A DNA stretch of 64,000 nucleotides from an uncultured Omnitrophica bacterium (GTDB taxonomy: Bacteria > Omnitrophota > Gorgyraeia > JACQQV01): contig CAMTXH010000014.1 of the NCBI GenBank assembly GCA_947085655.1, forward strand, positions 9,825 to 73,824, given 5' to 3'. Shown here in pieces: positions 4,052-24,700 of this stretch. The notes beneath the pieces were generated by a model. The model searched no databases. It had not been told where the DNA came from and worked only from the letters and a program-made list of their open reading frames with translations. The translations under genes were made by a program, and so were the position numbers. Each line of letters opens with the position of its first letter. Position 1 is the first letter of the stretch.

Positions 4052-6766
4052 ATGGATCGTCTTTCAAAAAGACAGAACACGATCCGACCGAAAGGGCCGG
4101 GGAAAAACCCGGCCCTTGTCGGCTTTCTATGGGGGGTGCTCTTTTTTGCTTTTGCACCCCTCTGTGCGGCGGTTGATTTCCAGACTTTTGAACCTTACAC
4201 CCCCCGTGTCACCGGCGGAAGCGACGCCCGCTCAGGCGGAACGCGCGATGCCCAGTTTGATGCAAGGCGGGCGGTGATTCAGTTTCAGGAAAGAGCGCGG
4301 CGGGAGGAGCGGACAAAGGAGCGGAGCGAAGAAAAAGAGATGGTGACCGGCCAAGCACTTGGCATCGAGCAGCATGTGGCCCAGGAAAAGCAGGTCAGCC
4401 AGGCCACCTCCCAGCACCAGCATCAGGACGGCGAGTTCATCTACAACCGGACCACCGGCATCGACCAATATAGCGCGGACAAAGACGGCGGTTACTGGTG
4501 GAGCAAGGTGGGGCTTCTTTTTAAGGCATGGAATGTCCTCTCCCGAGACCTCTACGCTAACGAATCCCGGAGCGAAATGACCGATTTTACGTTTAACGAC
4601 CTTTTGAACATCACCGGCATGAACCGCAAAACGGTGGATCAGGCAGGCCGGGTGACGGATGCCATCATTTCGGATATTACTTACCAGGAGGGTGAGACTC
4701 TCCGGAATTTCCTCAGCAAAAATAAAGAAGCGACGCGGACGGAAGTGAGCACCACGCATCATCCGACCGGGGACCAAACAACCCGGACCCGCATTTATGA
4801 CATTGTTTATAACGAGGAGCAGGTGGTCTCCCAGAAAGCGGAAATCTTCGACCTTTCCGGGCCGAACAACCCAATCTTGCAGGAAACCTTTGACATGAAA
4901 TACGACAAGGAAGGGAATGTCATCGGGGCGAAAACCCGCATCACCGACACCCTGACAGGGGTGGTGACCGAAAGCAAAACAGACAGCAGTTTCAACGGCA
5001 ATCGTGTCGTTTCATCCGTCTCGACCAGCAAAACATTCGACCCTTACCGGAACACCCTGACCGAACAGCTCAGTACCCAATCGGTTTCCTACGGCGGCGG
5101 GACCCAAGTGGATGCAAAAACGACCACAACGATTTATTCGACAGATAGCGAAGGAAACATCACCCGCGATTTCAAAACCGTCACCGAGTCCACGCAGGTG
5201 ATGGAGAATTTCTTCGGGATTCCGGAACTGGTGGAATCGCTCTCCAATACCCTGACGGAGGATTTCCTCGAAGTCCAGACGGTCCGCTCCGAATCCAAGC
5301 AGTTTTTTGCAAGGGATAAACATGGGAACCTTTTGAGCGCACGGGGCCTTGAAAGCGGCACCACCGTGAATTTCGACGGCTCCGTCACCCAGACCACCGA
5401 AAGCACGATGGACTTTACGGTGGTGGCAGACCAGCCGTACCTCACCGGAAGAAGCGACAAGACCTTTACCAAAGACATGAACCGGAATTCGGATTCGACG
5501 ACCGCCTCGACGCTCACCGTCCGCTTGGGCGCAAAAGGGGAGGTGTTGAATGGAACCCGTGAAGCGGAGACCTTTTCTTCCAACGGGGACGGGAGCATCA
5601 GTTCGACCCTTCGCGTGATTGAGGATTATGACCGGGCGGGCCTTGTGAATGACTTGGGGCTCATCAGACGGGTCACCACAAACCGGACCAAAAATGAAAT
5701 TGACCTGACGGATGAAGAAGAGACCCGGATTTATCTTCAGACCCATGATGATTTTAACCGGGTTCTTTCCGCGGAAGAGACGATCGAGGGAAGCGGAACC
5801 ACCTTGGATAATGTCGGAAGCTGGACAAGGACTTCCGGCCGCGTTGAATATGCCGTCAGCGAAAGAACTCTGCGGCCCTATGCGGTCAAGACCACGGTCA
5901 CCACCACCGCTTTTAATGCGATCGATCTTCTTTTGACCGAGGCGACCCAGATTCAGACGGTGGATGCGGACAAGGCCACCGGACGGATTCTGGGCGGGGA
6001 GGGCCGGACCCAAAGCACCTCCTTTGTCACAGACCAGGAAGGGAATGTGGTCAAGGTCCGGAGGGGGGATGTCTATACGCCGGCGATGGGGGACCGAGGC
6101 GACCCGGATGAGTTGATTCCGGTGGTCACGGTCCGGACGGAAAGCATCGAGCATTTTGTCGGCCTTGAGCATGCGAATGCGCTCGGTCTTACGACCCGGG
6201 AAACGGTGACAGACAACCTGGATGTCCGGTCGCACGACCGGACGGTGGTCCGCGAAGTACTGACCCAGAACTTAAACAGCGTCGGGAAAGTTCTCGGCGC
6301 CAAGGGCGTTACCAGAAGCGTTTCGGACGATGAATGGGGATACGGCGTGAGCCGGACCGAATCCTACATCGAGACGGAATATTTCCTGACGGATGACAAC
6401 CGGATTCTTCCCTCCATTCTCAAGATTGTGGAAGTGACAAAAGACCGGAATGACGGTGCTTACCGGGTGGTTGTCCGGGAGGACCGGACCCGTTACGACG
6501 ATTTCGGAAGAATTCATGAAGTGGACAATAGAAATCCGAGCCAGGGCGGGTTTGAGCGGATCTGGTATCAGGATGTCACTGTCCGTCCGATTCCGCCGGA
6601 TGCGGAAACGCCTGAGCAGATTTTTGAGCGGTTCTTTGGGAATGCATCACCTACGCTTCTTTCGGAGACTTCCGGGACTCTTCGCAACGGAGATGCCCCG
6701 ACACCCTTTCATCCCTTTGATCTGCCCCATGGGTGGATTTTAAGAATGTTTGGCCGGACAAGATAA
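4052..6766 (+). CDS. Large secreted protein, 904 aa, with degenerate YD-like repeats
   Basis: ATG at 4052 (TTG at 4049) is 7 nt after AGGAGG. N-terminal hydrophobic segment ALVGFLWGVLFFAFAPLCAAVD. Degenerate YD motifs (KYDKEGNVIGAKTRITD, TDQEGNVVKVRRGDVYTP, RTRYDDFGRIHEVDN). Thr-rich. Confidence 0.65.
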   Translation: MDRLSKRQNTIRPKGPGKNPALVGFLWGVLFFAFAPLCAAVDFQTFEPYTPRVTGGSDARSGGTRDAQFDARRAVIQFQERARREERTKERSEEKEMVTGQALGIEQHVAQEKQVSQATSQHQHQDGEFIYNRTTGIDQYSADKDGGYWWSKVGLLFKAWNVLSRDLYANESRSEMTDFTFNDLLNITGMNRKTVDQAGRVTDAIISDITYQEGETLRNFLSKNKEATRTEVSTTHHPTGDQTTRTRIYDIVYNEEQVVSQKAEIFDLSGPNNPILQETFDMKYDKEGNVIGAKTRITDTLTGVVTESKTDSSFNGNRVVSSVSTSKTFDPYRNTLTEQLSTQSVSYGGGTQVDAKTTTTIYSTDSEGNITRDFKTVTESTQVMENFFGIPELVESLSNTLTEDFLEVQTVRSESKQFFARDKHGNLLSARGLESGTTVNFDGSVTQTTESTMDFTVVADQPYLTGRSDKTFTKDMNRNSDSTTASTLTVRLGAKGEVLNGTREAETFSSNGDGSISSTLRVIEDYDRAGLVNDLGLIRRVTTNRTKNEIDLTDEEETRIYLQTHDDFNRVLSAEETIEGSGTTLDNVGSWTRTSGRVEYAVSERTLRPYAVKTTVTTTAFNAIDLLLTEATQIQTVDADKATGRILGGEGRTQSTSFVTDQEGNVVKVRRGDVYTPAMGDRGDPDELIPVVTVRTESIEHFVGLEHANALGLTTRETVTDNLDVRSHDRTVVREVLTQNLNSVGKVLGAKGVTRSVSDDEWGYGVSRTESYIETEYFLTDDNRILPSILKIVEVTKDRNDGAYRVVVREDRTRYDDFGRIHEVDNRNPSQGGFERIWYQDVTVRPIPPDAETPEQIFERFFGNASPTLLSETSGTLRNGDAPTPFHPFDLPHGWILRMFGRTR

Positions 6767-6767
6767 A

Positions 6768-9700
6768 ATGAAGAACAATCTTCTTGATCATAACCTGGAT
6801 GTCGCACGAATAGAGGAGCGGGACACCTCTATCCAGAAGTGGCAAACCCCTCGGTTGAAGCCGATTCTGGGGGCTTTGGCGCTTGTGGTTGCGGAGCTCT
6901 TTTTCGTGACACAGGTCGCCTGGGCCCTGGACTTGAATCATATCAATGCCTTCAAACGGCAGTTCCGGCAGCGGACCCTTGAGATGCAACGGATGATGCT
7001 TCCGCAACAGATGGATCGGAAACGGCAGGAACAGCAGGCGGCCCTTGACCGGAAAAACCTTGTGATTGAGAACTTCGGCAACACCGACTCCTCCTTCTTG
7101 GCGCTTGCGGATGTGGAAAGTCAGCCGCTCACGGAAGATTCGGTTCCGCGGCCGGTCTACCGGCTGGGGGAGGAGGAAAAGGATGACCGCAAGGTCATTC
7201 AACTCGCCCGCGGTCCCTTGGTCGGCGTTGAAGTCCTTGGGCGGACGACGGACGAGGCGGGTTTTGGCCATGTGACCTTACGAACCGAGGACGGCGCTCT
7301 GAAAGATGCCACCATCGGCTCTTCCTTATTTACGAAAGTGCCCGCCAAAGAGAAAAAACCGGTTGCGCCGGGAACCTATCTTGCCGAGGGCCTTGCCGGA
7401 GGAGCAGGTCTCCTTGAAGCGAGGGAGACTTTGGGCGGAGAACTGATTACGAGTCTTTCCCCCATCCTTCATATGAGGGAAGAGACACCCGAAAAAGCTT
7501 CCTTGCGCGAAACCATTCAAAGGCAAACCCAAGTTGCCGAATCAGAAACCGTTTTACCCGAAACTTCCAGTACCCTTCCGGTTGATATTGACACATTCAA
7601 AGACGAATACGGGCAGATTCCGGTGATCGATGCCCGGACCGGCAAGGCGAAGACCAGTTTTGAAAAATACATCGACAGTCTCTCCGAACTCTTCCATGCG
7701 GCAGGCCGCGCCGCCCTCAAGGCATTCCTCGAGGAGGCGGAGGAACTGGAGAATATCGAAAGGACCGATCCTGAAGCGGCGCGGATCGCCAAGGCCCACC
7801 TCACAGGAAAACGCGAACGGGACGGCCAAGAGCCACCGAACCCCGGCCAGCAGGATACCCCGAGAGACAGATTCCAATTCTCCAGTTCGGGCAACGCCCA
7901 GTTTGACGCCTTTCTCCAGAATCTGACGGAAGAAATGGAGAGGCGTCTTGCGGAAGGCCCGGAGACGACCAAAGATTCCTACACGTATGTGGCGAAAGAG
8001 GTCGGAGTTAAGTTTGATGCGGACGGGAATGTGGTCTCGACCTATACCCGTTATGTGAAAAAGACCTTCACCCTCCACCGCGGAGAACTCCGACTCATCG
8101 GACGGACCACCACAACCAATTATGAGAATGCGGACGGCACCACCGGCACCAAGGTGGAGATGGCCAAGTTCGGCTATGATGACCGGGGCCGGCTGGTGAC
8201 GCGGGATATTGAAATTCTCCTGAACGGCTTTGTCTACGACGAAGACCTGGAGAGAGTGACCGGACCATTTAACAATTTCCGGATGACGCTCCACCAGCAA
8301 GCGATTCGGGATGAGGAAGGCCAGATCGTTAAATTCATCTCTGTCTCCACGGTCGGGGACATCGAAAACCGCTACGTCCTTGAAATCGAAGAGCGCGACA
8401 CCGCCTACCAGAAGACCCGGTGGAAAGAAACCACCACCGTCACGAATCTCCGGACCGGAGAGGTCCGTACCACCGAGACCGAAGGACACGCCACCGGCTT
8501 TGACGACCAGGGCCGCGCCACCGGCTTTGAAATCAACGAACATGTCTTCGGCGGTCAGGATGATTACTTCCGGACGATCACGATCGAAGGGATCGTTTAC
8601 GGCAGAGACAACGAATGGGTGTCCTTCCGGCGGACCATTGAAACGGATGGCTTTGTCGGATTGCCGGACGGCGGCGGGGAGATGGTGCATCGGCGGGAGG
8701 TTTATGATCATTGGGTGGATTCCGAGACGGGTGACGCGATGATCACCACGAGAGTGTATGAAAACGGCGTATTGATTGACACCACCACTTACCGTCAGAG
8801 TGAGATGCCCGAATATATGGCCCTTTACCTGGACGGCCGCTTTGTCGCCCTGGCTCCTCTTCTTGGGATCAATTTCGAAACCTTTGTCAACGGCACTCTG
8901 GATGCCCAGAACTTCCTGACCGCCATGGGCATCAGCATGCCGCTTGAGACGCTGCTGGGTCTTACCGGAGACAGCGAGCTTGCGGCCGCTTTTGCCCAGA
9001 TGGACCCGGATGCAGTGGATGCGCTGGTCGCCGGTGCGTTGATGGCGCTTCTCTTTGAGGTGGTTAAGACTTACGCCGAGAATGTGGGACAGGATATCGC
9101 GGATGAGGAAGCGGAGAATCGGAGGACAAAGGTTATCAATAACTTTGTCGACAGGATGCCGGATCACCTCAAAGCGGCGGCACGTCAAATTGCCGAAAAC
9201 CTCTTTGACAATCTTGCAGACGTTCTGGCCGATATTCAGCAGGATCCTGCCAAGATGGATGCCCTGATCGGCCGCTTAAGGGATGCCGGTTTGACGGGCA
9301 ATCTCTCCAAGGTCGAACTCCGCTCGATGGGTTATACCGAAACGGTGATGTCCAGCACAAGCGACATCATCGAAAGGCGGACCGTTATCTTCGAATATGA
9401 CGAGGAAGGACGCATCTCCCAATCCCTTGAAAGGGTCCACCGCTTCGGGAGGGACAATGACGGAAAGGTCATTGACCAGACCTACAGCATCGAGCGCTCC
9501 GATTACCGCTACAGCGAAAACGGGGTCCTGATCGGCTATCGCGAAACCCTCATCGGCGTGAATGAAAACGGCGAAGTGACCCCCGGATTGAAAGTCGAAC
9601 GGGATGTCACGCCGGAATACGGCCCGGATGGCCGGCTCATCCGGATGACCTCGGTCAATACCTACAGCATCACCGATGAAAGAAGGGCGGAAGTCCAGGC

Positions 9701-12700
9701 CGGGATCGATGCCATTGACAGACGGGTCGCCGAAATCAAAGCGAAACTAAAAGGGAAAGTCGGTTATAAGGAACTCATCAAACTCCGGAACGAACTGAAG
9801 GTATTAGAAGAGCGGAAAAAGAGACTGGCAGCCGAGCGGGATGCCGAGCCCTTTACCCGGAAAACGGTTCAGGACCGGTTTGAATATGACGAGCAGGGGA
9901 ATGTGATCGGATACCGGCAGATCACGCGCGATGCGGAAGGGAACGTCGTCGATCATAACGAAGTCTCCGGCATCTATATCCATCCGGTCACCCAAAATGT
10001 GGTGAGGCAGATCCGGACCACCTATGTCCGGGACGGGGTGACGCTGGAAAAACCGGAGGTCCGGACCGAGTACAACAAACAGTACGACATGCGAGGCCGG
10101 CTCATCCGTCAGACGATTGAGCAGGATGGGAAAACGTTCGTCGAAGCATTCAAATATAATCGCCTCGATCAACTGATCTGGAGCCGGAATCAGCAGGGAA
10201 TCACCTCCAATTATACCTATAACCGAAGCGGCCAGGTGACCGGCTATGAGATGCACTTCTTTGAAGGGGAGACGAAATACGTCAAAGTTTACAATATCCG
10301 CTATGACGGATTCGGCCGGAAAGTCGGCGAAACCCGCCGGGCCTATATAGAAAATAAAGATGTGAAGGGCTGGCAGACAACCACCGTCACCTATGGGTAC
10401 GACCAACTCGGCCGGATTGCCTGGGAAGAGACCCACAGCGTCTTCAAGGGCAACACAAAGAAAGGTGACCACAAGGTCACCATCAAGGAGGGGTGGCGGA
10501 CCACCTACACCTACGGGCCCAACGGACAGGAAAAGCGCGAAAGGAGACTCTATTATGACCAGGAGATAAAACGGGGCTTCTGGGCGAATGTAGTCCACAA
10601 TCTCTTCGGCGGGTTTGTCTTTGATGCGATCGCAGAAATCTTCGAAGCGTTCGGGTGGGAGAAGGGCGCCAACTTTGTCCGTCAGATTACCCCGATTCTT
10701 CAGATGGTCGGCATTATGATCGCTGCCATACTCGCCGCGCCCTTCTCCGGAGGCCAGTCGCTCACCTTCGGCATGATGCTTGGGAACGCCCTTTTTGTGG
10801 CGGCCGTGACCGGTGCAGCCGCCTTCATGATGAATGTGGCAAACGGCATGTCCGTGAAAGATGCCCTTATCGCCTTTGCGAAGGGGCTTGCCCTCGCCGT
10901 TGTCACCGCGGGCCTCATGCAGGGGCTTGAAGCATTTGCCAGCGTCATCGATTCCATAGCGAGACTCGGGTGGGACATCTTGACCACGATTCCGAAACTG
11001 ATCGGCATCGCCCTGAAATTTGTGAAGGATGTCGGCACAAAGATTTATGATGCGCTGAATACCGCCTATACAAAGACTCTCCGGAAATTCATCGAGAAAT
11101 TCGGCGGAACCGCAGGGGCGACCGGTGGAATGATCACCCTTTCAACCGCCGGAAAGATTATGCAGGATGTGGTCCGGCAACTTGTGACCGCCGCCTTCAT
11201 GCAGATTAAGTTGCTCCGGGATTCCGACACCGCCAAGCTCCTCACCCTCTTCGCCCTCGGCGCCTACTTCGGAAATGTGGTGAATAGTTTCATCCTCCCG
11301 ATCGGACAGGAGATGATCCAGGGGAACAATCCGGAGGATATGGGTTATGCGGTCTATGCGCTTTATGCCTTTAACGTCGGGCTTCAGGCCTCTGGAGGCG
11401 ACTTCCTGAATCTTTTCCGGAATGCGGCGGGTGAACTGTCCGCTGTTGTCAGTAAAGGGGCCTTTATCGCGCAGTCGCTCTATCAGGCCCTTCAGGACCA
11501 GCTCCTTGCGGAACTCGGCGAAGCGCTCAAGCCGGATGTGATCCTCAAGACGGATGATTACGGAAACGTTCTTGAAAAGAAAAAAGGCGACCTTTCTCTC
11601 GGGGACAACATCTTAATTTCGATCGCCCGTTCCCTGACCGGCTACGAGATGTTCACCGCCATCCGCCACTTCACCTTCGGCAAGGGCCCCTTGATTGAAA
11701 AACAGGCGACCCCCGGCGGAAAATACCAGACTCTTCAATTCAATACCTTCGGCGATTTCCTGAAAGGCCGCGCCTCCCACATCGCCTTCTGGAGCGGCTT
11801 GCCGGATCCGGCGGATCCGAAAAAACTCATCTTCGGCTCCCAGCAGATGGCGATCAGCCGGCTGGGCGGTCAGACCCAAATTCAATACTTCAACAGCCTC
11901 TTTGAGGGGGGCGCAAAACCGTTCCGGACCGATCTCCTCAATCCGGGCGGCAAGTCCACCATTTCCCTTCATACGTATAAGCCGGACGGGACACAAGTCA
12001 CATACCGGACTGATTTCTTCCAAAACAATAAACCGGTTGCGACGGAACTTTATAGCGAAGATCACACCGTCCGGATCAACCACCTGGATAACACGGTGAC
12101 CGTTGTCGGACGCGGCGTCATACCGATACCGATTTACCCGATTTTCCCGTTTGTCCAATTCACATTCCCTCAGGCCATTGCCAATACCCAGCTGGACGGT
12201 CCCTTCCTGAGGATTCAGGGGAAGAACGGGGATATCGCGACGTATGACTTGAATAAAGTTATGGAGGGATGGGGGGAGAACATCGTTCCTCTGACAACGG
12301 CCACGTTTGACAAAAAAGGACAACCGACCTTTACCTATCATCCGGAAGGGCTTTCAGAAAGGACCTTTTCCTCCGAGGCCTTCCGGAATCAGCTTCCTGA
12401 AGCCCTCCGGGACGTGGAAATCACCAGGGACCGGCTCGATATCCGCTTCGGCACGCAGGTTTATGTTTATGCGGATAACGAGAAGAGCAAACTTCTCTTC
12501 ATCCACGACCTTGCTTCGGGATGGACGCTGGTGGAGGGACGGGAGAAAAACGATGTTGATCTCTATGTGAGTGCCGCAGGTGGGCCAAAGTCGGTCCGTC
12601 AATCCCTGCCGGAACTGTTCAAGCATATTGAACTGAATCTTAAAAATATCCAGATGCAGCAGACCGCCGCAGGACCGCTTCTGACTATTTTTGACGCTGT

Positions 12701-15700
12701 CAAGGGACAGGGAATCCTCTCGCTGGATCTGGAGGGAGGGGAACTGGCCGTCTCCTTCATCCATCCGCAGGGCCTTGAGATCGCCCTCGGTAACCAGACG
12801 GGGCAGGTCCTGCATGAGTGGAACGCGGCGCATCCTGAAAACCAAATTGATCCGAACCGCTTGGATGCGAATGCGGCAAAGAATCTCTTCAGTTTCTTCA
12901 GCGAAAAACTGAGCCAGCTCCAAAATCCGGATATGGATATGGCGGAGCGGGAGGTGCGGGTCAACCAGATCCGGCCGCTGGTTCAACTGCTCATTGCCAG
13001 GATGGGTGAGTTGGAAGGGCTTCTCGGAAGCGATGAGATCCAGACTCTGAAGAATAGCATAACCACCTTCTATCAAATTGCCATTCAGGTTGTGGAATAT
13101 AAGATAAGTGCCGTCCAAAAGACCATTTCAATCTTGAAGGAAAATGCAACCGGCCCCGGGGCTGCGGATTATCAGAACCATCTCCAAAAACTGGAAACTC
13201 AATTGGTTCAGGCGACAAATGCACTGACCCATTTGGAGGACTCCATCGATCAAAACCATTTTGATGCGGCGGATGTATTCCTTTCAAACGCGATGAACCT
13301 TCCGAGTCTTCTGACCCTACGGAGTGAAGCGGCGGGACTTCTTTACAAGCAGGGCGGGATCCAAGAGGGTAGAGTCAATGCCCTCAAGACCCTTTTGAAA
13401 CTCTATGAAGCCGAATTGAAAGAGGCGAGGAGCACAGCCGCTCCGGATACGACACGGATCGAGGATTTAACCAAGGCGATCTCTTACCTTAATTCCGCCA
13501 TCAACACCGGCCTGATCAGTCCTGAACTGCAGAATATTCTTTTGACTCCCCAGCGGAGAGTCCGGCTTCTTTTGTCACAGGCCCTTCCGGAACTGCTGAG
13601 GACCCAGGCGGCAGGAGGAGATATTACGAAACTAAAAGCAGACCTCCTTGCGAAGGCGGAAGAAATCAGTCCGGCATTCAGGGAGAGACTGGAAAACGTC
13701 ATTCGTATTTCTGCCGGCATCACCAGTCCGGAAATGGAGAAACTTTCTTCCGAAGCCCGGGCTGAAAGGGTTGTAAACATTACCCGGACCGAACTCATTC
13801 CGGCGGTGTTGGAGTTGAACCGATTCCTCGAGACGCAGGGGTATCTTTTGTATGCGGTGCCGTCTGCGGACGGCCGCAGGGTGGAAAGCCGTGTTCTGGA
13901 TATCAATGAAATCCGCCGGTACAAAATCACCCTCAACGGGAAAACGCATGAATTCCGCGTCTTCTTTGTGACCTATCCGGGGGCCGACTCGGGTGTTCCC
14001 GGCGGCGCCCTCCATGATCTTGAGACCCGGCTCAGCCATTACGGATACAGCATGGGGGATTACAATGTGGTTCTCCAGGATAACCTTGGCCGGTTTGTGG
14101 AAGTGATCAACGACTCAACCTTCAGGGATGTGGAAGGGCAGCGCCTTGAGGGCTTGGTCGCGGGCCAAGCACTGACCGTGGCAGGGTATCAGGTCATTGC
14201 AAACCTCACTGCAGACCACGAAGTGGGTCATGCGGTCGAGCGGCTACTCGGACATATTGATCCAACGGATGCCCCGGCACAGGAGACAGCCGCCTACTTC
14301 CGGGAATTGGCCGGCGCCGAAACATTCCAAGAGGCATGGGGATCGCTTAAGGATCTCTGGGGGATGGCCAAACATGGTCCGGAAGGGGCGCCTCATACGA
14401 TTGCCGCCCGAAACGTCTTACGCGCACTTTATACACGGCTGGCTCAAAAGGAGGGGGGAGACTTTAATGACCTCTCAACCCATCCGAAATTCCAAAGGGT
14501 CCTGATGCGCCTTGCGGAGGCGAACCTTGACGGATTCCGGTCTCTTATCGGAGAAGGGTACGAGGCCCACTTTGGCAGGGCATTGGTCCAGCCGGAACTT
14601 GAAGAGGGCTCTACCATCCCGAACCGGCCGGTCAGTCTTGAGGCGGTTGGGCTTGCGCTGAACACAGCGGACGACACCTTCATCACAAGGGCCGAAAGCG
14701 CCTACAACCGGCTCGGGGCATTTACCGACGACATTATTACTGCAATCAACAATAACGATTTGGATGCGGCCAAAGGGCTTCTCCAGTCCTCTGGGGCGTT
14801 TGTTACCGACATAACCGCCTTCTTCAACGAGGTCAGCTCGGTGATGGACGCGCTGAGTCATGTTCCCTCCAGCATCTTCGGAGAGCAGATGTCTCCGGAA
14901 GAAACGGCAAATCTGAGCCGGACCCTTCGTCAACTCGGGGATATTGTTGCCGAAGAGGAACTGACGCTTTCGCAAGCCCAGCGCAGCCCAACGCTCCGGA
15001 TGACGGATAGCGATTCTATTCCTGTGGCCGCGGTGGTGAACGCTGTGAATGCGGCAGAGGTGATCCATGAAGATGACACCATCACGAAACCGGGTAGTGT
15101 CAAAACAGCCGACGGCACATCGGTTAACTATAACGAGCACCGGCACCTTCAAATCCAGAATAACGACACCCAGACCCTCACAACGATTGACCGTTACTTC
15201 CAAGGGGAGAAACTTGTCTACCTTCAAGTGAGCGTCAAGGATCTGGTCACCGGCCGGATCACGAATTTCGCCTATACCGGAACGATGGAGTTGAACAAAT
15301 CGGGCGGGCTTAACCTGATTGATGCAAAAGTGTTCAGGACCTACACGACCCTCGCGACCCTGAACGGCGTCCGGCAAGAAGTTCTCATCGAAGAGATTTC
15401 CATTATAAAGGATAACGAACTCATCAGCTCGAATCAGGTCCTGAAGAGTCTCGAAGGGATTCCCCTTGGGACTTTGGATCCGCAAGAGCTCCAGAATCAA
15501 TTGAACGGAGTGGATGCCTCCGGAGCCGCTCTCCGGTTTACCGCGTTGGATGACCCGAAGAATCTCGGGGAGATCGAGGGCCTTAGGGGAAGAGAGAAAC
15601 TCCTGACACTTTATGAAGTGACCCGGACGGTTGAGACAGAGGAAGGGCCAAAGACAGAGACCTTCCATGTCCTTGCCAATGATGATTTCTCCGAGCAGTT

Positions 15701-18700
15701 CAGGGTGGAGATCACGCGTCAAGGGGATGCGATTCAGATTACCAAGGTCATTTATGATTCTGTCGTCGATCCCCTGACCGGCAATATCACTGTTCCGTTT
15801 GAGGTTCTTGAAAACGGAAAATTTGTGAGCGACCGGTTTGAATATGCAAGACTCTCCGATCCGAAGAACCTTGCATCGGCCGAACTCAAACTGAAGGCGG
15901 AAGGGTTCCTTGAAGTGAGCGGCCTTCATCTCTATAAACTCACCCGGATTCATGGAACGCAGCAGGTGGGGGAGGCCTCCTATGTCCTTGCAACTCAGGA
16001 CCTCTCGGAACAATACGGTATCCGGCTCGGCAAAAATGGACAGATTAAGAGTATCCAAGTCCAGTTTAAGACGGAAGGCAATAATAAGAAAGTCACTTCC
16101 CTTGACTTTGAAAACGGCGAATTTGTCGTTACAGAAAGATTCTTCGGACGGAAGAGTGCCGCAAATCTCTCCTCGGCTCAAAAAATCCCGCTTTTGGCAG
16201 GGTTCCATCTCTATGAGGTGACAGAGACGGTCAAATTGGCGAATGGGAGTATTCGCCGCGGAGAAACCTCCATGGTCATGGCGAACGACGATCTCTCCGA
16301 TATTTACGGCGTCACGATGGAAGGGAGACAAATCGAAGCGATTCATATCTCCTTCGAGCGCCATGCCGAGGGCGCCACCTCCCGCTCCTTCATCTTTGAC
16401 AAGGGACGCTTTGAAGATACGATCAGCAAATACACACTGTCAGATTTGGCCGTGGAGAAACTCCCCGAAGCGATTGCCGCCTTGAAAGCGGCCGAAGGTC
16501 TCAAGATCGAAGGGAAACTTTCACTCTATCTCCTTGAGCAGACGGTGGACGGCAAAAAAGAGGCACCGGCATTTGTGCTGGTGAACGATCAGTTTACGCA
16601 GCAGTTCGGTGTCTCGCTGAATGAAGAAAGGACCCGGGTGATCGGGGGTCAAATCTCCTTTGATCGGAAGACCCTGACCGGGCGCGCCCTCGTCCTCAAC
16701 GAAAAAACCGGCCAATTCGATGATGTCATCAGCCATTACACAAAACTTGATTTGGTGCTCGGGAATCTGCCGGAGGCGGAAAGACGGCTCGGTGTCGGAG
16801 CGCTTACCGTCTACAAACTCAACCGGATCGTGAACGGGGTGGAAGAGGATCCTTCCTATGTTTTGATCAATAGCGACTTCAACAGACAATACTCGGTAGA
16901 GTTGAACGAAACCCAGACAGAGATTACCAGGATCCCGCTCGGTTCCAAAAAGGATCCCAAGACCGGAAATATCATTGTGACCTCCCTGGATGTCATCAAC
17001 GGCGAATTCCACGACGTGGAGACGCATCATCTCAATACACTGTTTAACCGGAGGGATTTGGAAGTCTACCGCTCCAGAATGAGGGAAGCGGGATATTCGC
17101 CCGAGGACTTCACCCTTTACGAGGTGGTCAAATATATTGATGGCAAACGTCAGCCGCAATCACCGACTCAGCACAGTGCCGCCCTTCTTCCGGCCCACGT
17201 TCCGACTATTCCTCTCGCCAATCTCTTTGAAGCGGACGGCCGCCAGTTTATTCTTCTGAGCAACGACTTCAACAAACAGTACGGCGTGAACTTTAGGAGC
17301 GGAAAAATCGAATCACTCAATTTCCGGACCGAAGGGGAAAACGGCGCTTTTACCATTACCACCTGGACGCCGAATAAGAAAGGCGGCATTGACGAACATT
17401 TGGATCTCTACGCACCGGTCTTCTTTGATGAATCGAGTCTTGGTGTATTCAGGGATCGGAATGTGATCGGAAGCGACCAGCACACCCTCTACAAAGTCAT
17501 TCAGAAACTGAATGGTGCCGTCCAGGCAGATTTCCATCTTCTGGTGAATGAGGACTTCAGCAAGCAGTTTGTGGCAACCCTTGAAGGGGACAGAATCACG
17601 AGTCTCATGCTCCGGACAGAGGATACGGACACCTTTAAACTCACCACCTTCACATTGTCCGGCAATGAAATTATCGAAACCTCTGCTATTTTCAACAAAA
17701 AAACTGGCGAACTGATCCGGGTCGAAAGCCCCTACGCCGAACGGCTCCAGACGCTTGAATCGCTTGTCGCGCAGCGGGACTACCTGAACGCCCTGATTCT
17801 TTATCTGACCGCCTCCTCGGATGCGCGGGATACACCGGGGCAGGACGGGCGGGATGCGCAGGTCGTTCTCCATCGGCAGGAGTTGGCAAGGATCGAAATC
17901 CAAATTGCCGAGGCGCAGGATCTGGTGGCGGCGGATCTTCTGGAATCGCTGAAGGCGCAAGGGTATGACACAACCCGGCTCACCCGCGAGAATGTCGTCT
18001 TTGTCAATAATGACAGATCACCGAAACTGACTGTCGATATTACATCTGAAAAGGAGGTCGGCGGGCGGAATCAGGTCATCAAAATCGAACCGAACGCCAT
18101 CTTTGGAATTGATGCGCAGACCGGAGGATATGCGGTCCACACAGGCGTTCTCCGGGTCGGGAATCTCAAACTGGCCTACCGGGACTTTAATCCGGAAATA
18201 CCGGCGCCACAGGATGATCAGAAACCGCAGGCCGGCGAAATGGTCTCAACCGGCATCACCCAGGTCGAGTTAGATGTGGATGAAAATAATAACTACTGGG
18301 TGACCGGAAGGATTGAAGTAAAGGACTTTGCCCGGCTTTTGGTGGTCCCCGGCTCGCGGATCGCTCTGCTCGGCAATCAGCAAGCAATCATTCTTGGAGA
18401 TACTTTTGACCCAGCCACCTCCGAAATCGGCCGGGTGATTGTGATTGAATTTGACAGCCGCCTCGGCGAAGACGGGAAAACGCCTATCGGCGCGGTGGCA
18501 CGGGATATTACGGGAGAGGTCCTTGCCGCACAAGAGACATTCCGGCAGAAGCGGACGATGCCGCAACGCTATAGCGCCGGATTCGATGGTATGGTGGATG
18601 ACGAAAGAGCCGCGGCTCCCAGATTTGACAGTGACGTTGCCCCTAATTTCGACATTGTCCCTTCCGACGCGGGGACAGGAAGAGAACTCAACACCGCCCG

Positions 18701-21700
18701 CGAGTTGGTCAATGCCAATATAGGAGGCGACACCGTAAGAGCGATGCCGGTCCTGGATGCCTCGATCGGGCGGATTTTCGTTCAGGCGATGAAGGTTGTT
18801 TGGGGGAATGTTGTCATCCGGCTTGGAAAGGAGTTCCATAATAGAGGGTGGATCGAGTCAGGCGAGGCACTCGCCAGGGAAGGACAGATGAACCAGGCGG
18901 TTCTTGGCGGGCCGTGGAAACAGGCATTGGCAAAGCCCGGCATTCTCCCGGCCATTACCTCTTTCCTCAGCGGATTTGCCTTCTTTGCACTCGCCATGCC
19001 GCAGTTTATCGCTGAATTTGTGGGCAAGCCCTGGGAGCTCATCAAGAAAACACTCGATCCCAACTCACCCGATTTTATCCTGACTTCGATGGCGAGAACT
19101 TTTGCGCAGGATCTGAAGACGAATGTCTGGTTCGGGCTCGGTGAACTGGCGGTCTTCGGCGCTTCGTTTGCCGTCGGCGGTTTCCTAAAGGGTGCGGGCC
19201 TGTTCCGGGTGATGAAGCAGGCAGCAAAGGCCCACAATAGACCTGCTTTGGCGGCGAGGGCGCTTGGTGAATCGATCACTGCAGGCGTTTCATACGGTAT
19301 CCGTTCGGCTCTCATGCTTCCGGTGCACCTGGTGACCTTCCCGATTACAATGACGCTTGGCATCATCGGAAAAGGATTACAGTTTGCCGGCGTCATGCGG
19401 CTTGGGAAGCTATTCAACGCATTGGGCGGCAATGCCCTCCGTTCTTACCTTGCTAACTTTTCCCTGAATCATCCGATTGCCTTTGTCAGAGCAAACGGCT
19501 TCTTTGGAAATGTTTCCGCTTTCATGAACCAGTTCCGCTTTGCCGATGCAAGCCCCGAGCGGCTTCTGGAGAGTCAGGCCGAGGCGTATCTCTTGCAAAA
19601 GACCGCGGCGGAGATGCTGAAGGGGGGCAATAATTGGATTCAGAAGAAAAGTTTGCAGCTTGCCCTTCAGCACTTCACCAAACAGTTGGGCCGGATCGAT
19701 ACGGCGATTTTGCAACTGGCAGGACAAAGAGGCGAACTTGACAGACTCATCGATCTTGGTTCCGGCAGGGGGAATGAACTCTTCGGTCAGCGGATCTCCA
19801 ATCTTGAACCGCTTGCCAACCTGATGCAGAGGGCCGCCAACTTTTATTTCGGAGAGCTTCTAAGGACGGCAGGACACGCCGAATCCGTCTCTGTCTTTGG
19901 TGAACTCCTTCAAAGAGGGATGATGCCGGAGACGATCCGGGAAGCAGTCCTCGACGCCCTGAATGGCGGAGGCGCGGGCCCGAGAAGAATCGCCGGCATT
20001 GAAATTGTGAATACCAGTGTGCTTCGCGGCATCTTAAACCTTGCACAGAAATTTAACAATACGCTCCGGCTTCCGGAACGGGTCCAGCAACTCGCCTTTG
20101 ACCAGTTTGTCTATGAAATGGTCCGGACGATGCCCGGTTACAGCCCGCAGGATATTCGAACCATCATTGACGGGGAGGGAAAACCGATCGATCTTCTCCT
20201 TCCGGGCGGCGATGCAAACTATAGCAGAGTCTACCGGACTGTCCGGCTTTCCAACGGCCAAGAAGTCGAGGTAACCCCGGTCCGTTTGGCCGCGGCAAGA
20301 AGGATTTATGAAGTACAGGGTGAGCGGGCGGCGAATCTTCTTTTTGAAGGGCTCTTTAGAGGGCTCCGGAATCCGGCTGAAATCCTGAACCGGTTGAATG
20401 CTCTCGGAAAAATCATCTTTGACCCGGCCAATTACGGAAAGACGTTAAGGGAAATTCTTCCGGCTGAATTGATGCCGCGGCTTCTCCGTGGGTCGCCCCT
20501 TGCCGACTATCGGCTGACGCCTCAGAGCCATTTGTTTAAACTCCTCCATACCAAACTGGAGAGCTACAATAGCCGTTTTGGCAATAAACCCTCTTTGTTC
20601 AACCTTGGAAATCCCTATCGGGACTTCTGGAAACCGGTGACCTCCACCAGCAGCGGAAAAAGCGCCCCCGGTGAATATGGAGGCACCCCGGAGCAGGTCC
20701 GGACACAGTTCGAAAGCCAGATGAATGCGGCCGAGAATCATCGGGCGAAGGCCAAGGAGTGGGCGAAAGCAAATGGCGTTCCCGAATCCCAAGCAGAGGC
20801 CAAATGGCTCCGGTCGGAACTGAAGCGGGTGAAACTGACCGGAAGAGAAATCCGGCACGCGGTCCGGCAGTATCGTCAAAATCCGGCCGGGTTACAAGAA
20901 TTCCTGAACGGACTTCGAAGGACCGAGCTTTTGACACCGGATGGCCGCGTTAATCCCGAAGGGCTCAGGAATCATGCGCTGGCGGAAGTCGTCGATCTCC
21001 TTGTCAATGTCTATCCCGATTTTAAACTTGACCGGAGGGGCTCCGGTGACCAACTCACCTTCCTTTATTTAATTACAGAGCGTGATTTCCTCCGGTTAAA
21101 CGGAGAAAGCGTTCCGACAGCCCTTCTCCAGTTGGTCCAAGGAGGCGGAAAAACACTCGGTGTCTTAATCGGAAAAGAGGCCGCTTACTCGCTTCATCTC
21201 AAACAGAAACCGAACGCCTCCTTCCATGACCTGATTGTGACCTCCAGGGATCAGTTGGCTTTCCAGTATTTCAAGGAAGGATCCCTTGAACGGAGGGTCA
21301 TTGACCATATGCGCGATACACTCGGAGTCGAGATCCGGAATGTCTCCTCCAAAGAAGTCCAAAACGTGGAGAACATCGGACCGGTCGGTCCCCGGAGTCT
21401 CCTCGTTATGGATAACTATAACTTCAAACGGCTGAGCATGAGTCTCACAAAACTCTACCAGGAGAAGGAAGCGCTTCAGCCGAAGCTCCTTGCCAAGGAG
21501 AAGGAGATTGAGATAGCCGGACAAGACCTTCGGGCAACAGAGGCACAATACCGGGCGAACACGGGACGGAATATCCCCTCCCTTTTGGATGCGGCTTCCG
21601 AGTTGGGTACAGCGAGGAGGACGGTGGTCGGCAGACAAGCAGACTGGTACCAGATTGCAACCCGGCTAAAGGAAGTGGAAGCCAAGATCGAAGATCATTA

Positions 21701-24700
21701 CCTTGCAAAAGTCAAAAAAGAAGGTGGCACCCTTTTTGACGAGATTCAGGAGGCACTTGCCGACTCGGACCTTATTGAAGGGCCGGGGGGCGCTCTCCTT
21801 GAAACTCAAGACCCGACGAAAATCGAGGGCATCCGGGCGGATATCCGGGGCCGGATCAAAACCTTCCAAGCGCTTCAGGAGGAATTCTTAAGGACGGATA
21901 ATCCTTACGATGCGATTGAAAATGTCCTTCATGGCCAGAGGCGCGTGCGGGGCCAGTACCAGTTTAGAGCCGAGGTGGTCCAAAGGGTCTCTGAGCGGTT
22001 GAAACACGATCCGGATGTTGCCTCACTCGGCGAGCGGGGGAGGGGAAGCGAGTTTGAGCAATTTGCCGATGCGACGGCCAATGCCCTCATGTACCGGGAG
22101 GGAACCGATTACTTTATCAGAGCAAGGGGCGAGGCCCTTCGGTATTCCACAGGGCGCTTCGGCGTCAACCAACTGGAGACGGTCTTCGGAAACCGGGAGC
22201 TTGGCACAGCGGTCCTCATCAAAGAATACCTGAATCCCGAAAGAAACTTTGTCCGTGCCGGCGAGAGTGTCAATGCCATGGCAAGACGCTTCACGACAAA
22301 CGAAAGCATTCTCAACAGCATTGCCGATAGCTATCTCCACCATGAATTCAACCGGACCACCACCTTGAATGCCCTTGCCTTGGTCGGGCTTGAAAAGACG
22401 ACCTTTGTGACCGGAACAAGCAAAGGGATCCGGCATACCCTTAAGAAAATCGGTGCTTTAGTCTACGCAATCCAGAAGGAATCGCCGATTAAGTATCAGG
22501 AGAATTTGGAGCATGTCTTGGAAGTGCCTGTAGCCAATGAAGGCGACTCGATCAAGGAAGCAGTCAAGCAGGTGAGAAAGGCGCTTGCTGCAAATGCAAA
22601 AGGGGTCAAGATCGTGATTACAGGCGCGGATGGCGCACTTCTTGCGCAGATTCGTGAGGCACTCATCAAGGCAGGCCTCGGCGAACAGCTTCATATTACA
22701 AGAATCCGCGGACAGAAAGGAAGCGCCCATATTACCACAGCGCTTGATGCGGTCCGGAAGCGGTTTGAAAGTCATCCTGACCAGAATCACCTCATCTTGG
22801 TTCCCGATTTTGGCGCCGGGTCCAACCTCTTTGCTTTCATTGAGAATGTTCTCACGGGGGAAAAGATGCCCGGATCTCTCAAGCCGACCATCATTGAAAT
22901 GGGTCTCCGGGGCGAAACCCACCGGCAGCAGCTGGGCGCCCGGATGAACGGCGTTATCAGAGCCGATGTCCAGGGACGTGAAACCGGACGCTTCATCACC
23001 ATTATTAATGAACAGGGCCGGGAGCTGACCGATACCGAGCGGGTAACGCTTGGCCGCATCACCGACCCGGCCAAGCGGGAAGCTTTCTGGAGAGACACCT
23101 CCCGGAGAATGGACCGGGAGATTGATACCCAGAATGTGGTCCGGGTGGTCCAGGTCTCCCTCACGCATGCGGAGAGACGTCTGGTTGAGCACCGGATTTA
23201 CGACCGGGTGGTCAAGGGAGCGCTCGAACGGTCCAAGCGGAGAGCGGAAGTTTCGTTTGAAGAGGCGGTTAAAAATATCACCCAATTTAGAGAAGCACTT
23301 GAAAAACTCGGCATCCCTGTCCTGCTTATCCCGGACGTGGTGAACGCCATTCAAGGGTTCCGGCTCGGGAATCATCGCCTTCTGGACGAGGACGGGAACT
23401 TTACAAAAGAGGGGACCGCATTCCTTCGGCTCATGGATGACCTGATTCAGTTCGATGCTTCGCATGAACTGAAGGAGGACGCTCTTGCGCTCATCGCCAG
23501 CGCAAAGGTCTCTGTGGTCGACAAGCTCCGACAATTGAATGGGGCGGCAGCGACCCTTAGAGAGGCACCGGAGAAATATGCGGCGGATGTGGCCTTTATC
23601 GCTTTAGGGTGGATGGAATATGCGAATTCCTCGGATCCCTTTATGATGGACCCGTTGAGTTTTGCCGGGGCGCGGAATGCTTTCCGGGAGACCTTCAACG
23701 AGGCACTTCTTGCGGTACTCGAGGTTCTTCCGGATGCGATGGCCGAGGATCTGACAGATGAAGAATTCAATGTTCTCTTCGAGGAACTGGTCACCAAGAT
23801 CAAAGAGGTACAGAAGAGCCATAAGGATGTCCCTGCCTTCATGCTGACAGAGAAATTTACTGAACTGGTCCTTGCCCGGATTGACCGCGCCTTGGCAGGG
23901 AATACCTTATCCCCGATCGAGCGGGAGCGTGCGGAACACCTCAAGGGGGCCATTACCGAGCTTTCCGGAAGTCTGATGAAAACGGTGGATGGCAAAGAGG
24001 AGCCGAAAAGTTTTGAAGAGTTTATGTTCACCATGATGCAGATTGCGGCGAAACCGGAATATCCGGAAGTCTCCGCACTCGACCTTTTAAGCGCCATGCA
24101 GCCCTTGATGAGCCACAGCAAACGGGAACAGGCCGGGCATGCGATGGATGCCCTCGGACAGGTGGTGAAGGTCGGCCGGCTCGAAGAACTCGGACTTAAG
24201 GAAGCGGTCCTTGCAAAAATCAGGGAATCCACGAGAGGCGAAAAGATTGATACGGTAGCGGTGCTTCAAAGAGGGCTCACAACGAACGTTCTTGCCGGAC
24301 GGAATTTCCTTCTTGTTTCGCATCGGCCCACCCTGACCGGGAACGGGATGGTCTATCAGTTTGGCACGAGTCCCCTTCAGTACCGGGAGGAAGACGATCG
24401 GCTTATCCTGACAGGGGATAGCCGGGGAACGCGCACGCCAACCGGTGAGCTGGTCAAGGAACCGCCTGTCAAGAAAGTCGCTGTGAGGGAGATTGAGGAT
24501 GAAAAAGTACGGGCTGCCCTCGCGGCTCGCGGCCTTGGGGAAGACGGCGCCGTCCGAGTGGTGAATTACGAAAAAGGCCTCCTCACGGAAACGTATTACC
24601 TTGCTCCGGAGGCGGATCGCATCCTCCATGCAGCGGTGGATATTCCTCTTTATACCGAAGACCTTGCAAGGAGTCTTGGGTTCCTCTTCCCGGGTGCAGG

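Follow-up and report, generated by a model that had tools for sequence, protein, structure and literature searches.

The window analysed here is a 64,000-nucleotide (nt) stretch of an uncultured Omnitrophica bacterium (GenBank assembly GCA_947085655.1, contig CAMTXH010000014.1, positions 9,825 to 73,824 of the forward strand). One of its genes encodes a protein of 7,085 amino acids (aa), and within this giant protein exactly seven tandem copies of a module of about 100 aa form a repeat array (nt 15597-17750, + strand; aa 2950-3667, 718 aa). The array is real and anciently duplicated. Its module, predicted to be a six-stranded antiparallel β-meander with one helix, has no relative in the databases searched, and the array lies between two clusters of transmembrane segments. 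An earlier reading made from the letters alone (hereafter the sequence-only reading) had placed seven repeats at 15598-17750; the end of that interval stands, whereas its start is one base off phase, in a frame with stops, and the in-frame start is 15597.

Seven diverged copies of one module

A motif search located L/V-Y-x-[VL] starts at aa 2954, 3061, 3154, 3259, 3354, 3456 and 3580, and the unit borders were cut four residues upstream of each. In the list below, leave-one-out E values refer to searches for each unit with a hidden Markov model (HMM) profile of the other six.

15531..15596 (aa 2928-2949), + strand: linker before unit 1, homologous to the helical linkers between units (BLAST high-scoring pair of aa 2928-2992 with 3030-3097, E 3.5e-4)
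15597..15917 (aa 2950-3056, 107 aa), + strand: unit 1 (HMM domain 2951-3054, 93 bits; leave-one-out E 2.6e-12)
15918..16196 (aa 3057-3149, 93 aa), + strand: unit 2 (HMM domain 3058-3148; leave-one-out E 1.2e-12)
16197..16511 (aa 3150-3254, 105 aa), + strand: unit 3 (HMM domain 3151-3251; leave-one-out E 2.3e-12)
16512..16796 (aa 3255-3349, 95 aa), + strand: unit 4 (leave-one-out E 7.1e-15)
16797..17102 (aa 3350-3451, 102 aa), + strand: unit 5 (leave-one-out E 8.6e-17)
17103..17474 (aa 3452-3575, 124 aa), + strand: unit 6 (leave-one-out E 4.2e-8)
17154-17237 (aa 3469-3496), + strand: 28-aa Pro-rich insertion in unit 6, in the loop after the first hairpin, seen in the alignments
17475..17750 (aa 3576-3667, 92 aa), + strand: unit 7 (HMM domain 3576-3659; leave-one-out E 4.6e-10)

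The units, 92 to 124 aa long, can be aligned over their full length at pairwise identities of 17-33 %, low as the sequence-only reading had it, although its range of 25-35 % was slightly too high. Unit 7 is the most diverged and its C-terminal end is shortened. The profile of the other six recovered every unit, with E values from 4e-8 to 9e-17, and a profile built from all seven recognises seven domains in the giant protein, no more, and nothing with E < 0.1 in the ten other large open reading frames (ORFs) of the window. A BLAST self-comparison of seven large window proteins (the two giants and five others), run in chunks since off-diagonal pairs get culled inside a plain BLAST self-alignment, located internal repeats of the giant protein only at aa 2928-3662, at offsets that are multiples of about 100 aa and with a best E of 7e-20. 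Both tests bear out seven tandem units in the 7,085-aa gene, and they find strongly significant the periodicity whose absence would have told against the sequence-only reading. An eighth unit was sought in both flanks by HMM searches and by hhalign with the unit profile and was not found (hhalign E 0.23 and 0.15).

Tandem Repeats Finder reports nothing on the array DNA, and the residual matches there reach only 63-73 %, over the most conserved motif. Because the units share so few residues and no repeat is left at the DNA level, the array is old, and the proposal of an ancient array rather than a recent duplication holds.

The host gene opens at a TTG and runs to 28025; its coordinates are as follows.

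6750..28025, + strand: host gene of the array (ORF of 7,091 codons from TTG 6750)

Starting at ATG 6768 gives the 7,085-aa product (6768..28025, + strand), the same length as the database protein P0001, from which it differs at 3 of the 7,085 residues. The guanine-plus-cytosine (GC) content by codon position is 0.61/0.39/0.64 over the whole 7,085-aa gene and 0.56/0.35/0.61 over the array region, an asymmetry that marks the + frame as coding; the long minus-strand ORFs over the array region are the usual antisense shadows, since the gene is 54 % GC.

Predicted fold and conservation of the unit

Structures of single units were predicted with AlphaFold2. The model of unit 5 (mean predicted local distance difference test score, pLDDT, 82.1; predicted template modelling score, pTM, 0.60) has strands at residues 3-8, 20-25, 31-36, 43-52, 59-67 and 70-78 and a helix at 85-97 with a pLDDT of about 57. 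As a test of reproducibility the array was re-cut so that each row opened with the preceding linker, and unit 4 was folded in this phase. Its model (pLDDT 73.3, pTM 0.55) begins with a helix at residues 9-19 (pLDDT 74-77) and continues with six strands in the same order as in unit 5, including a mini-hairpin after strand 1. In both models, of two units cut in two phases, a period is thus predicted to comprise six antiparallel strands in an up-and-down meander and one amphipathic helix, and the suggestion of a β-rich domain agrees with both of them.

The motifs quoted by the sequence-only reading are present (L/V-Y-x-[VL] in seven of seven units, [NTS]-x-[DQ]-[FL]-[STN]-x-[QI]-[FY], and a G-x-[FI] turn) and can be mapped on the models. 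Strand 1 is formed by 'LYxV', and the first hairpin has Gly14 at its tip. The long motif 'VL-x-N-x-D-F-S-x-Q-[FY]-x-V' runs from strand 2 through a polar turn of five residues into strand 3, and 'N-G-E-F' is the turn that connects strand 5 to strand 6. Just two residues are the same in every unit, Tyr6 and Gly14. Elsewhere, conservation falls on hydrophobic core columns, which alternate within strands, and on turn formers, among them the N-x-D-F-S stretch between strands 2 and 3 and the Gly of the strand 5-6 hairpin. No polar residue that might act in catalysis or bind metal is common to the seven units; at the third motif position six of them have Asp and one has Gln, and the N-x-D-F-S loop is, to our knowledge, not an established Ca2+ motif. 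The net charge of the units ranges from -8 to +4, so that no uniform surface is kept. What is conserved is fold and shape rather than an active site, and we consequently read the array as a structural module and not as an enzyme.

The check that had been proposed for a single unit, a predicted structure searched with Foldseek, gave no significant match: for both unit models, all E values against PDB and BFVD are at least 0.06 and template modelling (TM) scores at most 0.40. The top-ranked, insignificant neighbours of both models are lipocalins, the lipocalin-like BT_0869 (3hty), DUF3836 (4r8o), BF3112 (3msw) and the YpeB C-terminal domain, and no Ig-like entry stands at a meaningful score among the top 50 PDB matches listed.

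Searches for relatives of the module

Searched against Pfam at E <= 10, the array and its single units give noise only, all far below the cut-offs (DUF5514 at 0.028, DUF7516 at 0.051, AbbA and Dit_C at about 0.06-0.08). NCBIfam gives no match, and the best E of the unit profile against all PDB sequences is 0.72. No bacterial Ig-like or cadherin family of Pfam matches the array, nor was any adhesin, lectin or Ig-like signature found in it. RHS_repeat (PF05593) has no match in aa 2950-3667, though the same search finds it at aa 400-1260.

HMMER, run exhaustively over 1.84 billion cluster representatives, returned two proteins only, P0001, which is the gene itself, and P0002. The latter, the sole non-self match (E 1e-13), was rejected as a homologue: each of its stretches scores at most 10 bits and aligns to profile positions 44-93 only, so its total score reflects repeat copy number and not a common domain. 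P0002 is a low-complexity protein of 1,630 aa with at least 12 copies of a repeat of about 62 aa, 'GKVPV[ST]RKVLRNGKFE[ED]I[IV]EYV[YF]PEDLPKEK', whose hairpin 'V-L-x-N-G-K-F' mimics strands 5-6 of the unit.

A pattern-plus-tblastn search with the array found no relative in 185,579 species-representative genomes and JGI metagenomes, and the 1,655-aa neighbour described below likewise drew a blank in the species-representative genomes. A word-indexed homologue search was empty for the array, as for aa 1270-2949 and aa 4260-5700 of the same protein; these negatives are weak, because that search missed even the gene itself. Within Pfam, NCBIfam, PDB, the 1.84 billion representatives and the Foldseek sets of PDB and BFVD, the domain is indeed undescribed. 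We regard the family as new and lineage-restricted, and an array of an orphan β-module in a Pfam-dark giant membrane protein as belonging to a known and common kind.

Membrane context of the array

By hydropathy, the protein that carries the array has a hydrophobic segment near its N-terminus and seven or eight more in its interior.

6855..6929 (aa 36-60), + strand: N-terminal hydrophobic leader or anchor '...ILGALALVVAELFFVTQVAWA' (hydropathy peak 2.17)
10686..11294 (aa 1313-1515), + strand: transmembrane cluster 1, four strong segments, with a weak one at aa 1277-1295 (Kyte-Doolittle scan)
18942..19367 (aa 4065-4206), + strand: transmembrane cluster 2, three hydrophobic segments (Kyte-Doolittle scan)

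The array sits inside the soluble segment of about 2,500 aa between the two clusters. With transmembrane clusters on both sides, it belongs to a loop that has two anchors and does not make up a free distal stalk. The orientation of this loop would depend on cluster 1: four helices would put it on the side of the RHS region, which would be the outside given an N-in leader or cleavage at 'AWA', and five helices would make it cytoplasmic. Published work on such giant proteins likewise describes topology calls as unreliable.

Other regions of the protein and its locus

A search of the whole 7,085-aa protein detects no Pfam family at E <= 0.01 and no NCBIfam match, and both of its halves give noise only against PDB sequences. 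It contains no Cys. One region could be assigned in a search of the N-terminal soluble part.

7950..10529 (aa ~400-1260), + strand: RHS/YD repeat region (Pfam RHS_repeat, E 1.5e-5, 25.7 bits against a cut-off of 22, three stretches)

Further motifs were noted: two HExxH motifs, 'HEVGHAVERLLGH' at aa 2489-2501 (~14214-14252) and 'HEIIH' at aa 6703-6707 (~26856-26870), and a P-loop-like 'QGGGKTL' at aa ~4796-4803 (~21135-21160), in which the 'GGGKTL' near aa 4797 presumably recalls SecA motif I. None of these has Pfam support even at E <= 10.

All listed genes of the window lie on the + strand. The four ORFs upstream of the giant gene have signal-like N-termini and no family matches; downstream follow four large genes and, last in order, CBM9/CBM30 (carbohydrate-binding module) proteins.

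28257-46559, + strand: second giant gene (6,100 aa), whose sole family match is a peptidoglycan-binding domain
46566-50735, + strand: gene of a 1,389-aa protein
50948-55915, + strand: 1,655-aa fusion of a GlmU-like nucleotidyltransferase (aa 233-499), a left-handed beta-helix (LbH)/DUF4954 region (aa ~660-960) and a carbamate kinase (aa 1302-1606)
55922-60271, + strand: 1,449-aa protein with a full acyl-CoA dehydrogenase embedded at aa 655-1042
6855-6990, 28290-28440, 46590-46740, 50970-51110 and 55930-56070, + strand: N-termini of the five Cys-free proteins, with the leader cores 'VVAELFF', 'IVVETFL', 'MVAQAFVF', 'LVTELFL' and 'ILIETFLL'

The 7,091-, 6,100-, 1,389-, 1,655- and 1,449-aa proteins, encoded consecutively at 6750-60271, hold no Cys in 17,684 aa; of the six flanking genes, five encode 1-7 Cys each and the first ORF (nt 8-829) none. 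The five Cys-free proteins have in common an N-terminal leader made of a hydrophobic helix with a central Glu or Gln followed by A-[WYL]-A, and in four of them an 'LRP[RK]AS..DGG'-like motif comes after it. In the 1,655- and 1,449-aa proteins the enzyme domains stand behind a hydrophobic leader. This leader matches no sorting signal that we know of, a comparison made without a database search. Absence of Cys is typical of proteins exported unfolded. It is no proof of export here, because the Cys-free carbamate kinase, GlmU-like and acyl-CoA dehydrogenase domains need cytoplasmic cofactors. Taken together, the giant leader-bearing proteins, the peptidoglycan-binding domain and the CBM9/CBM30 proteins suit an envelope or surface apparatus.

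Two similarities among the neighbours were seen besides. Over its last ~190 aa, the 6,100-aa protein shows 41 % identity to the C-terminal end of the 1,389-aa protein (E 7e-37; 45960-46556 versus 50157-50693), which suggests a common C-terminal module, and the 6,100-aa protein carries an internal duplication of aa 84-307 and aa 313-529 (28506-29177 and 29193-29843).

Variation between assemblies

The gene is nearly clonal in two NCBI assemblies (GCA_964374045.1 and a 76.8-kb contig) and four Logan run assemblies. The window differs from P0001 by T3331A in unit 4 and by V3415F and I3416T in unit 5. Five assemblies compared over nt 4052-16766 have three variable sites in all: a synonymous single-nucleotide polymorphism at nt 9272 and the non-synonymous H3205R (unit 3, assembly L006) and T3331A.

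16363 (aa 3205), 16740 (aa 3331) and 16992-16997 (aa 3415-3416), + strand: positions of the amino acid variants, from the assembly comparison

All four amino acid differences seen in the gene fall inside the array, which makes up 10 % of its length; the probability of such clustering by chance is about 1e-3 to 1e-4. This thinly suggests that the array is the part of the protein that is most tolerant or under most diversifying selection. In the models T3331 lies at a strand end (unit 4) and V3415/I3416 just before the strand 5-6 turn (unit 5), positions that would fit a tolerant or exposed scaffold or a binding surface. Gene conversion from unit 2 was considered as a source of V3415F/I3416T and rejected, the codons of unit 2 being TTT GAA, that is F-E and not F-T.

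Upstream of the giant gene, GCA_964374045.1 (L004) differs from the window upstream of position ~1537 and of the 904-aa gene by an indel or rearrangement, and it has no called gene where another assembly (L005) and the window have a 281-aa ORF (836-1681).

A probable scaffold arm in a membrane-tethered loop

With moderate confidence, we interpret the array as an orphan set of anciently duplicated modules that would serve a giant, envelope-associated protein as the spacer or scaffold arm of a loop tethered to the membrane; some of the loops of the modules may vary and take part in binding. Each module of about 100 aa would fold into its six-stranded antiparallel β-meander, and the short amphipathic α-helix would join it to the next. 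The resulting chain of folded beads would give length and stiffness to one arm of the membrane-anchored loop, and its variable loop surfaces may serve binding. The role would most likely be that of a non-enzymatic, structural scaffold.

Several points weigh against this interpretation. The gene product is predicted from the DNA sequence, and no homologue offers comparative support. The input to AlphaFold2 was a seven-row alignment of the units themselves, and the models, each of a single unit, would suit beads on a string as well as a continuous sheet; the other four models of each run reached a pLDDT of only 50-69 (51-65 in the unit 5 run). The Lys/Arg counts around cluster 2 are contradictory, and hydropathy and the positive-inside rule disagree on the side of the array. 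The variation hotspot, finally, rests on three or four events only.

Similar features are described for published giants. In long bacterial proteins, tandem-repeat scaffolds, Pfam-dark proteins and nucleotide tandems that have dissolved are the rule, and 80 % of the catalogued long proteins are sequence singletons (Nielsen & Lui 2026, 10.64898/2026.06.07.730766). The giant-protein loci of Omnitrophota and related uncultivated bacteria hold membrane-anchored giants and multi-enzyme fusions, and 15 % of the proteins are Pfam-dark. Like these giants, the host protein is very long, membrane-anchored, largely unannotated and unique at the sequence level; it carries one module in tandem, whose DNA repeat has long dissolved, as antiparallel β units separated by α-helices, and its neighbours are membrane-anchored multi-enzyme fusions. 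As in the tandem-repeat scaffold class of Nielsen and Lui, its seven copies are the sole internal repeat of a membrane-anchored protein and Tandem Repeats Finder detects nothing, with the reservation that this class, in which one domain dominates by copy number, was drawn up from the Pfam domains of proteins no shorter than 10,000 aa, and the giant here is Pfam-dark and 7,085 aa long. It also has the numerous transmembrane regions of the Omnitrophota-type giants (Archaeovorin and Dockerin types), at a length below their 30,000-aa class, and Pfam scans detect in it no SecA_DEAD, C39, S8 peptidase, glycosyl-transferase or glycosyl-hydrolase, dockerin or TSP3 domain, even at E <= 10 on aa 4700-5500. 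It differs from the published giants in its 7,085 aa, where the catalogues start at 10,000 or 30,000 aa, in units of about 100 aa instead of CBM35-like barrels of about 200 aa, and in lacking sequence similarity to any other protein among the 1.84 billion representatives.

Alternative readings

A role outside the cell, as an adhesive stalk showing binding surfaces to prey, host or substrate in the manner of the extender regions of giant adhesins, overlaps with the scaffold arm that we prefer, and we hold it to be possible but doubtful. The extenders of RTX adhesins such as LapA, SiiE and MpIBP are arrays of ~100-aa Ig-like or cadherin-like domains, stiffened by Ca2+ at the linkers between domains, and the likeness to them extends to tandem β-rich modules of about that length, a Cys-free giant protein, conservation in core and turns and a presumed spacer function. 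Four transmembrane segments in cluster 1 and the cleavable-looking leader ('AWA') would put the array outside, together with the RHS region; in keeping with such a place are the lack of Cys in the protein and its four downstream neighbours, the peptidoglycan-binding and CBM domains nearby, the variants clustered in the array, and a literature that ties giant proteins to adhesion. Against a stalk, the array is not at a free end but has transmembrane clusters on both sides, the fifth, weak segment at aa 1277-1295 would move it into the cytoplasm, the charges around cluster 2 are contradictory, and, given the Cys-free neighbours with cofactor-dependent enzyme domains, a lack of Cys is no proof of export. 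No lectin, Ig, cadherin or Ca-binding signature was found in it. Unlike adhesin extenders, moreover, the units match no bacterial Ig-like or cadherin HMM or fold, they are predicted as an up-and-down six-strand meander plus helix instead of a Greek-key sandwich, they number seven at 17-33 % identity against tens of near-identical copies, and the array stands between transmembrane clusters, with no RTX or type I secretion system signal detected. The adhesive stalk proposed by the sequence-only reading is at most a candidate, its geometry in particular being doubtful.

Rather unlikely, in our view, is that the units merge into one continuous antiparallel β-helix or tubule with regular exterior helices. 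Giant proteins are known to contain unannotated repeating β-units linked by helices (West-Roberts et al. 2023, 10.1101/2023.11.21.568195), and antiparallel β-helix tubules of about 1,500 aa with exterior helices, in which one sheet continues from repeat to repeat around a hollow axis, are predicted in giant proteins of Omnitrophota (10.1101/2023.11.21.568195); antiparallel strands with one helix per ~100 aa are the composition described for them. A tubule would also accord with the pTM of only 0.55-0.60 for isolated units, with the presence in the same protein of RHS/YD repeats, which form related shells, and with the confidence of the helix, whose pLDDT is 74-77 before the next unit versus 56-58 after its own, a hint of packing between units. 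On the other hand, single units fold alone with a pLDDT of up to 82, and the 28-aa insertion of unit 6 and linkers that vary in length (14-25 aa) are easier to accommodate in separate beads. As input for a multi-unit model, overlapping rows are aligned by MAFFT as a staircase on the identical unit, and non-overlapping pairs of units give only three or four rows and a poor alignment.

A bolder reading is a long shot. It would make the unit a new fold and the variable, exposed recognition element of an undescribed envelope system, in which the leader would send the five Cys-free proteins (17,684 aa) along a common disulfide-intolerant route of export or assembly; the variants in the array would then result from diversifying selection where the cell meets other cells or phages.

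It is very improbable that each unit is a lipocalin/calycin-like or BLIP/PepSY-like ligand cup and the array a multivalent binder or inhibitor. The best Foldseek matches, all insignificant, do point that way (lipocalins, 3hty, 4r8o, 3msw and the YpeB C-terminal domain), and the unit resembles lipocalins and the Bacteroides DUF3836 and BLIP-PepSY-like proteins in having an antiparallel meander and one helix in about 90-100 aa. But those proteins are single-domain, and they align with E values of 0.06-1, TM scores of 0.22-0.40 and root-mean-square deviations of 6-15 Å, with no similarity of sequence profiles. A lipocalin or calycin would be an eight-stranded barrel with a TM score of at least 0.5; the unit has six strands, scores 0.2-0.4 against lipocalins and keeps no conserved pocket residues.

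The view that chance or composition produced the periodicity, or that no real gene underlies the ORF, has nothing in its favour beyond the absence of homologues and is refuted by the E values (to 9e-17 leave-one-out and 7e-20 off-diagonal in BLAST), by the codon-position GC asymmetry over a 21-kb ORF and by the independent assembly of the same gene from four sequencing runs and its presence in two NCBI assemblies.

If confirmed, the module would be a further orphan domain family in that part of giant bacterial proteins which has no annotation. It comes with a Pfam-style seed of seven diverged copies from one gene and a Cys-free fold of about 100 aa that is probably easy to express, and the array is of value mainly as a way into the locus and its 7,085-aa protein, which otherwise lacks all annotation. 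The side that the array faces and its variability would tell whether the product of the locus is a surface apparatus of the sort suggested for ultra-small bacteria that live as predators or episymbionts. The repeat alone neither opens nor settles a major question; more unusual are two by-products of the analysis, the five consecutive genes of Cys-free proteins that share a leader and the crowding of amino acid variation into the array.

The RHS/YD repeats of the same protein consist, like the array, of antiparallel hairpins, at a period of about 20 aa in place of ~100 aa and with the YD motif and RHS_repeat match that the array lacks. A YD-like stretch, 'YYDEQGRVSRIVRYE', also occurs in the small upstream ORF at 836-1681.

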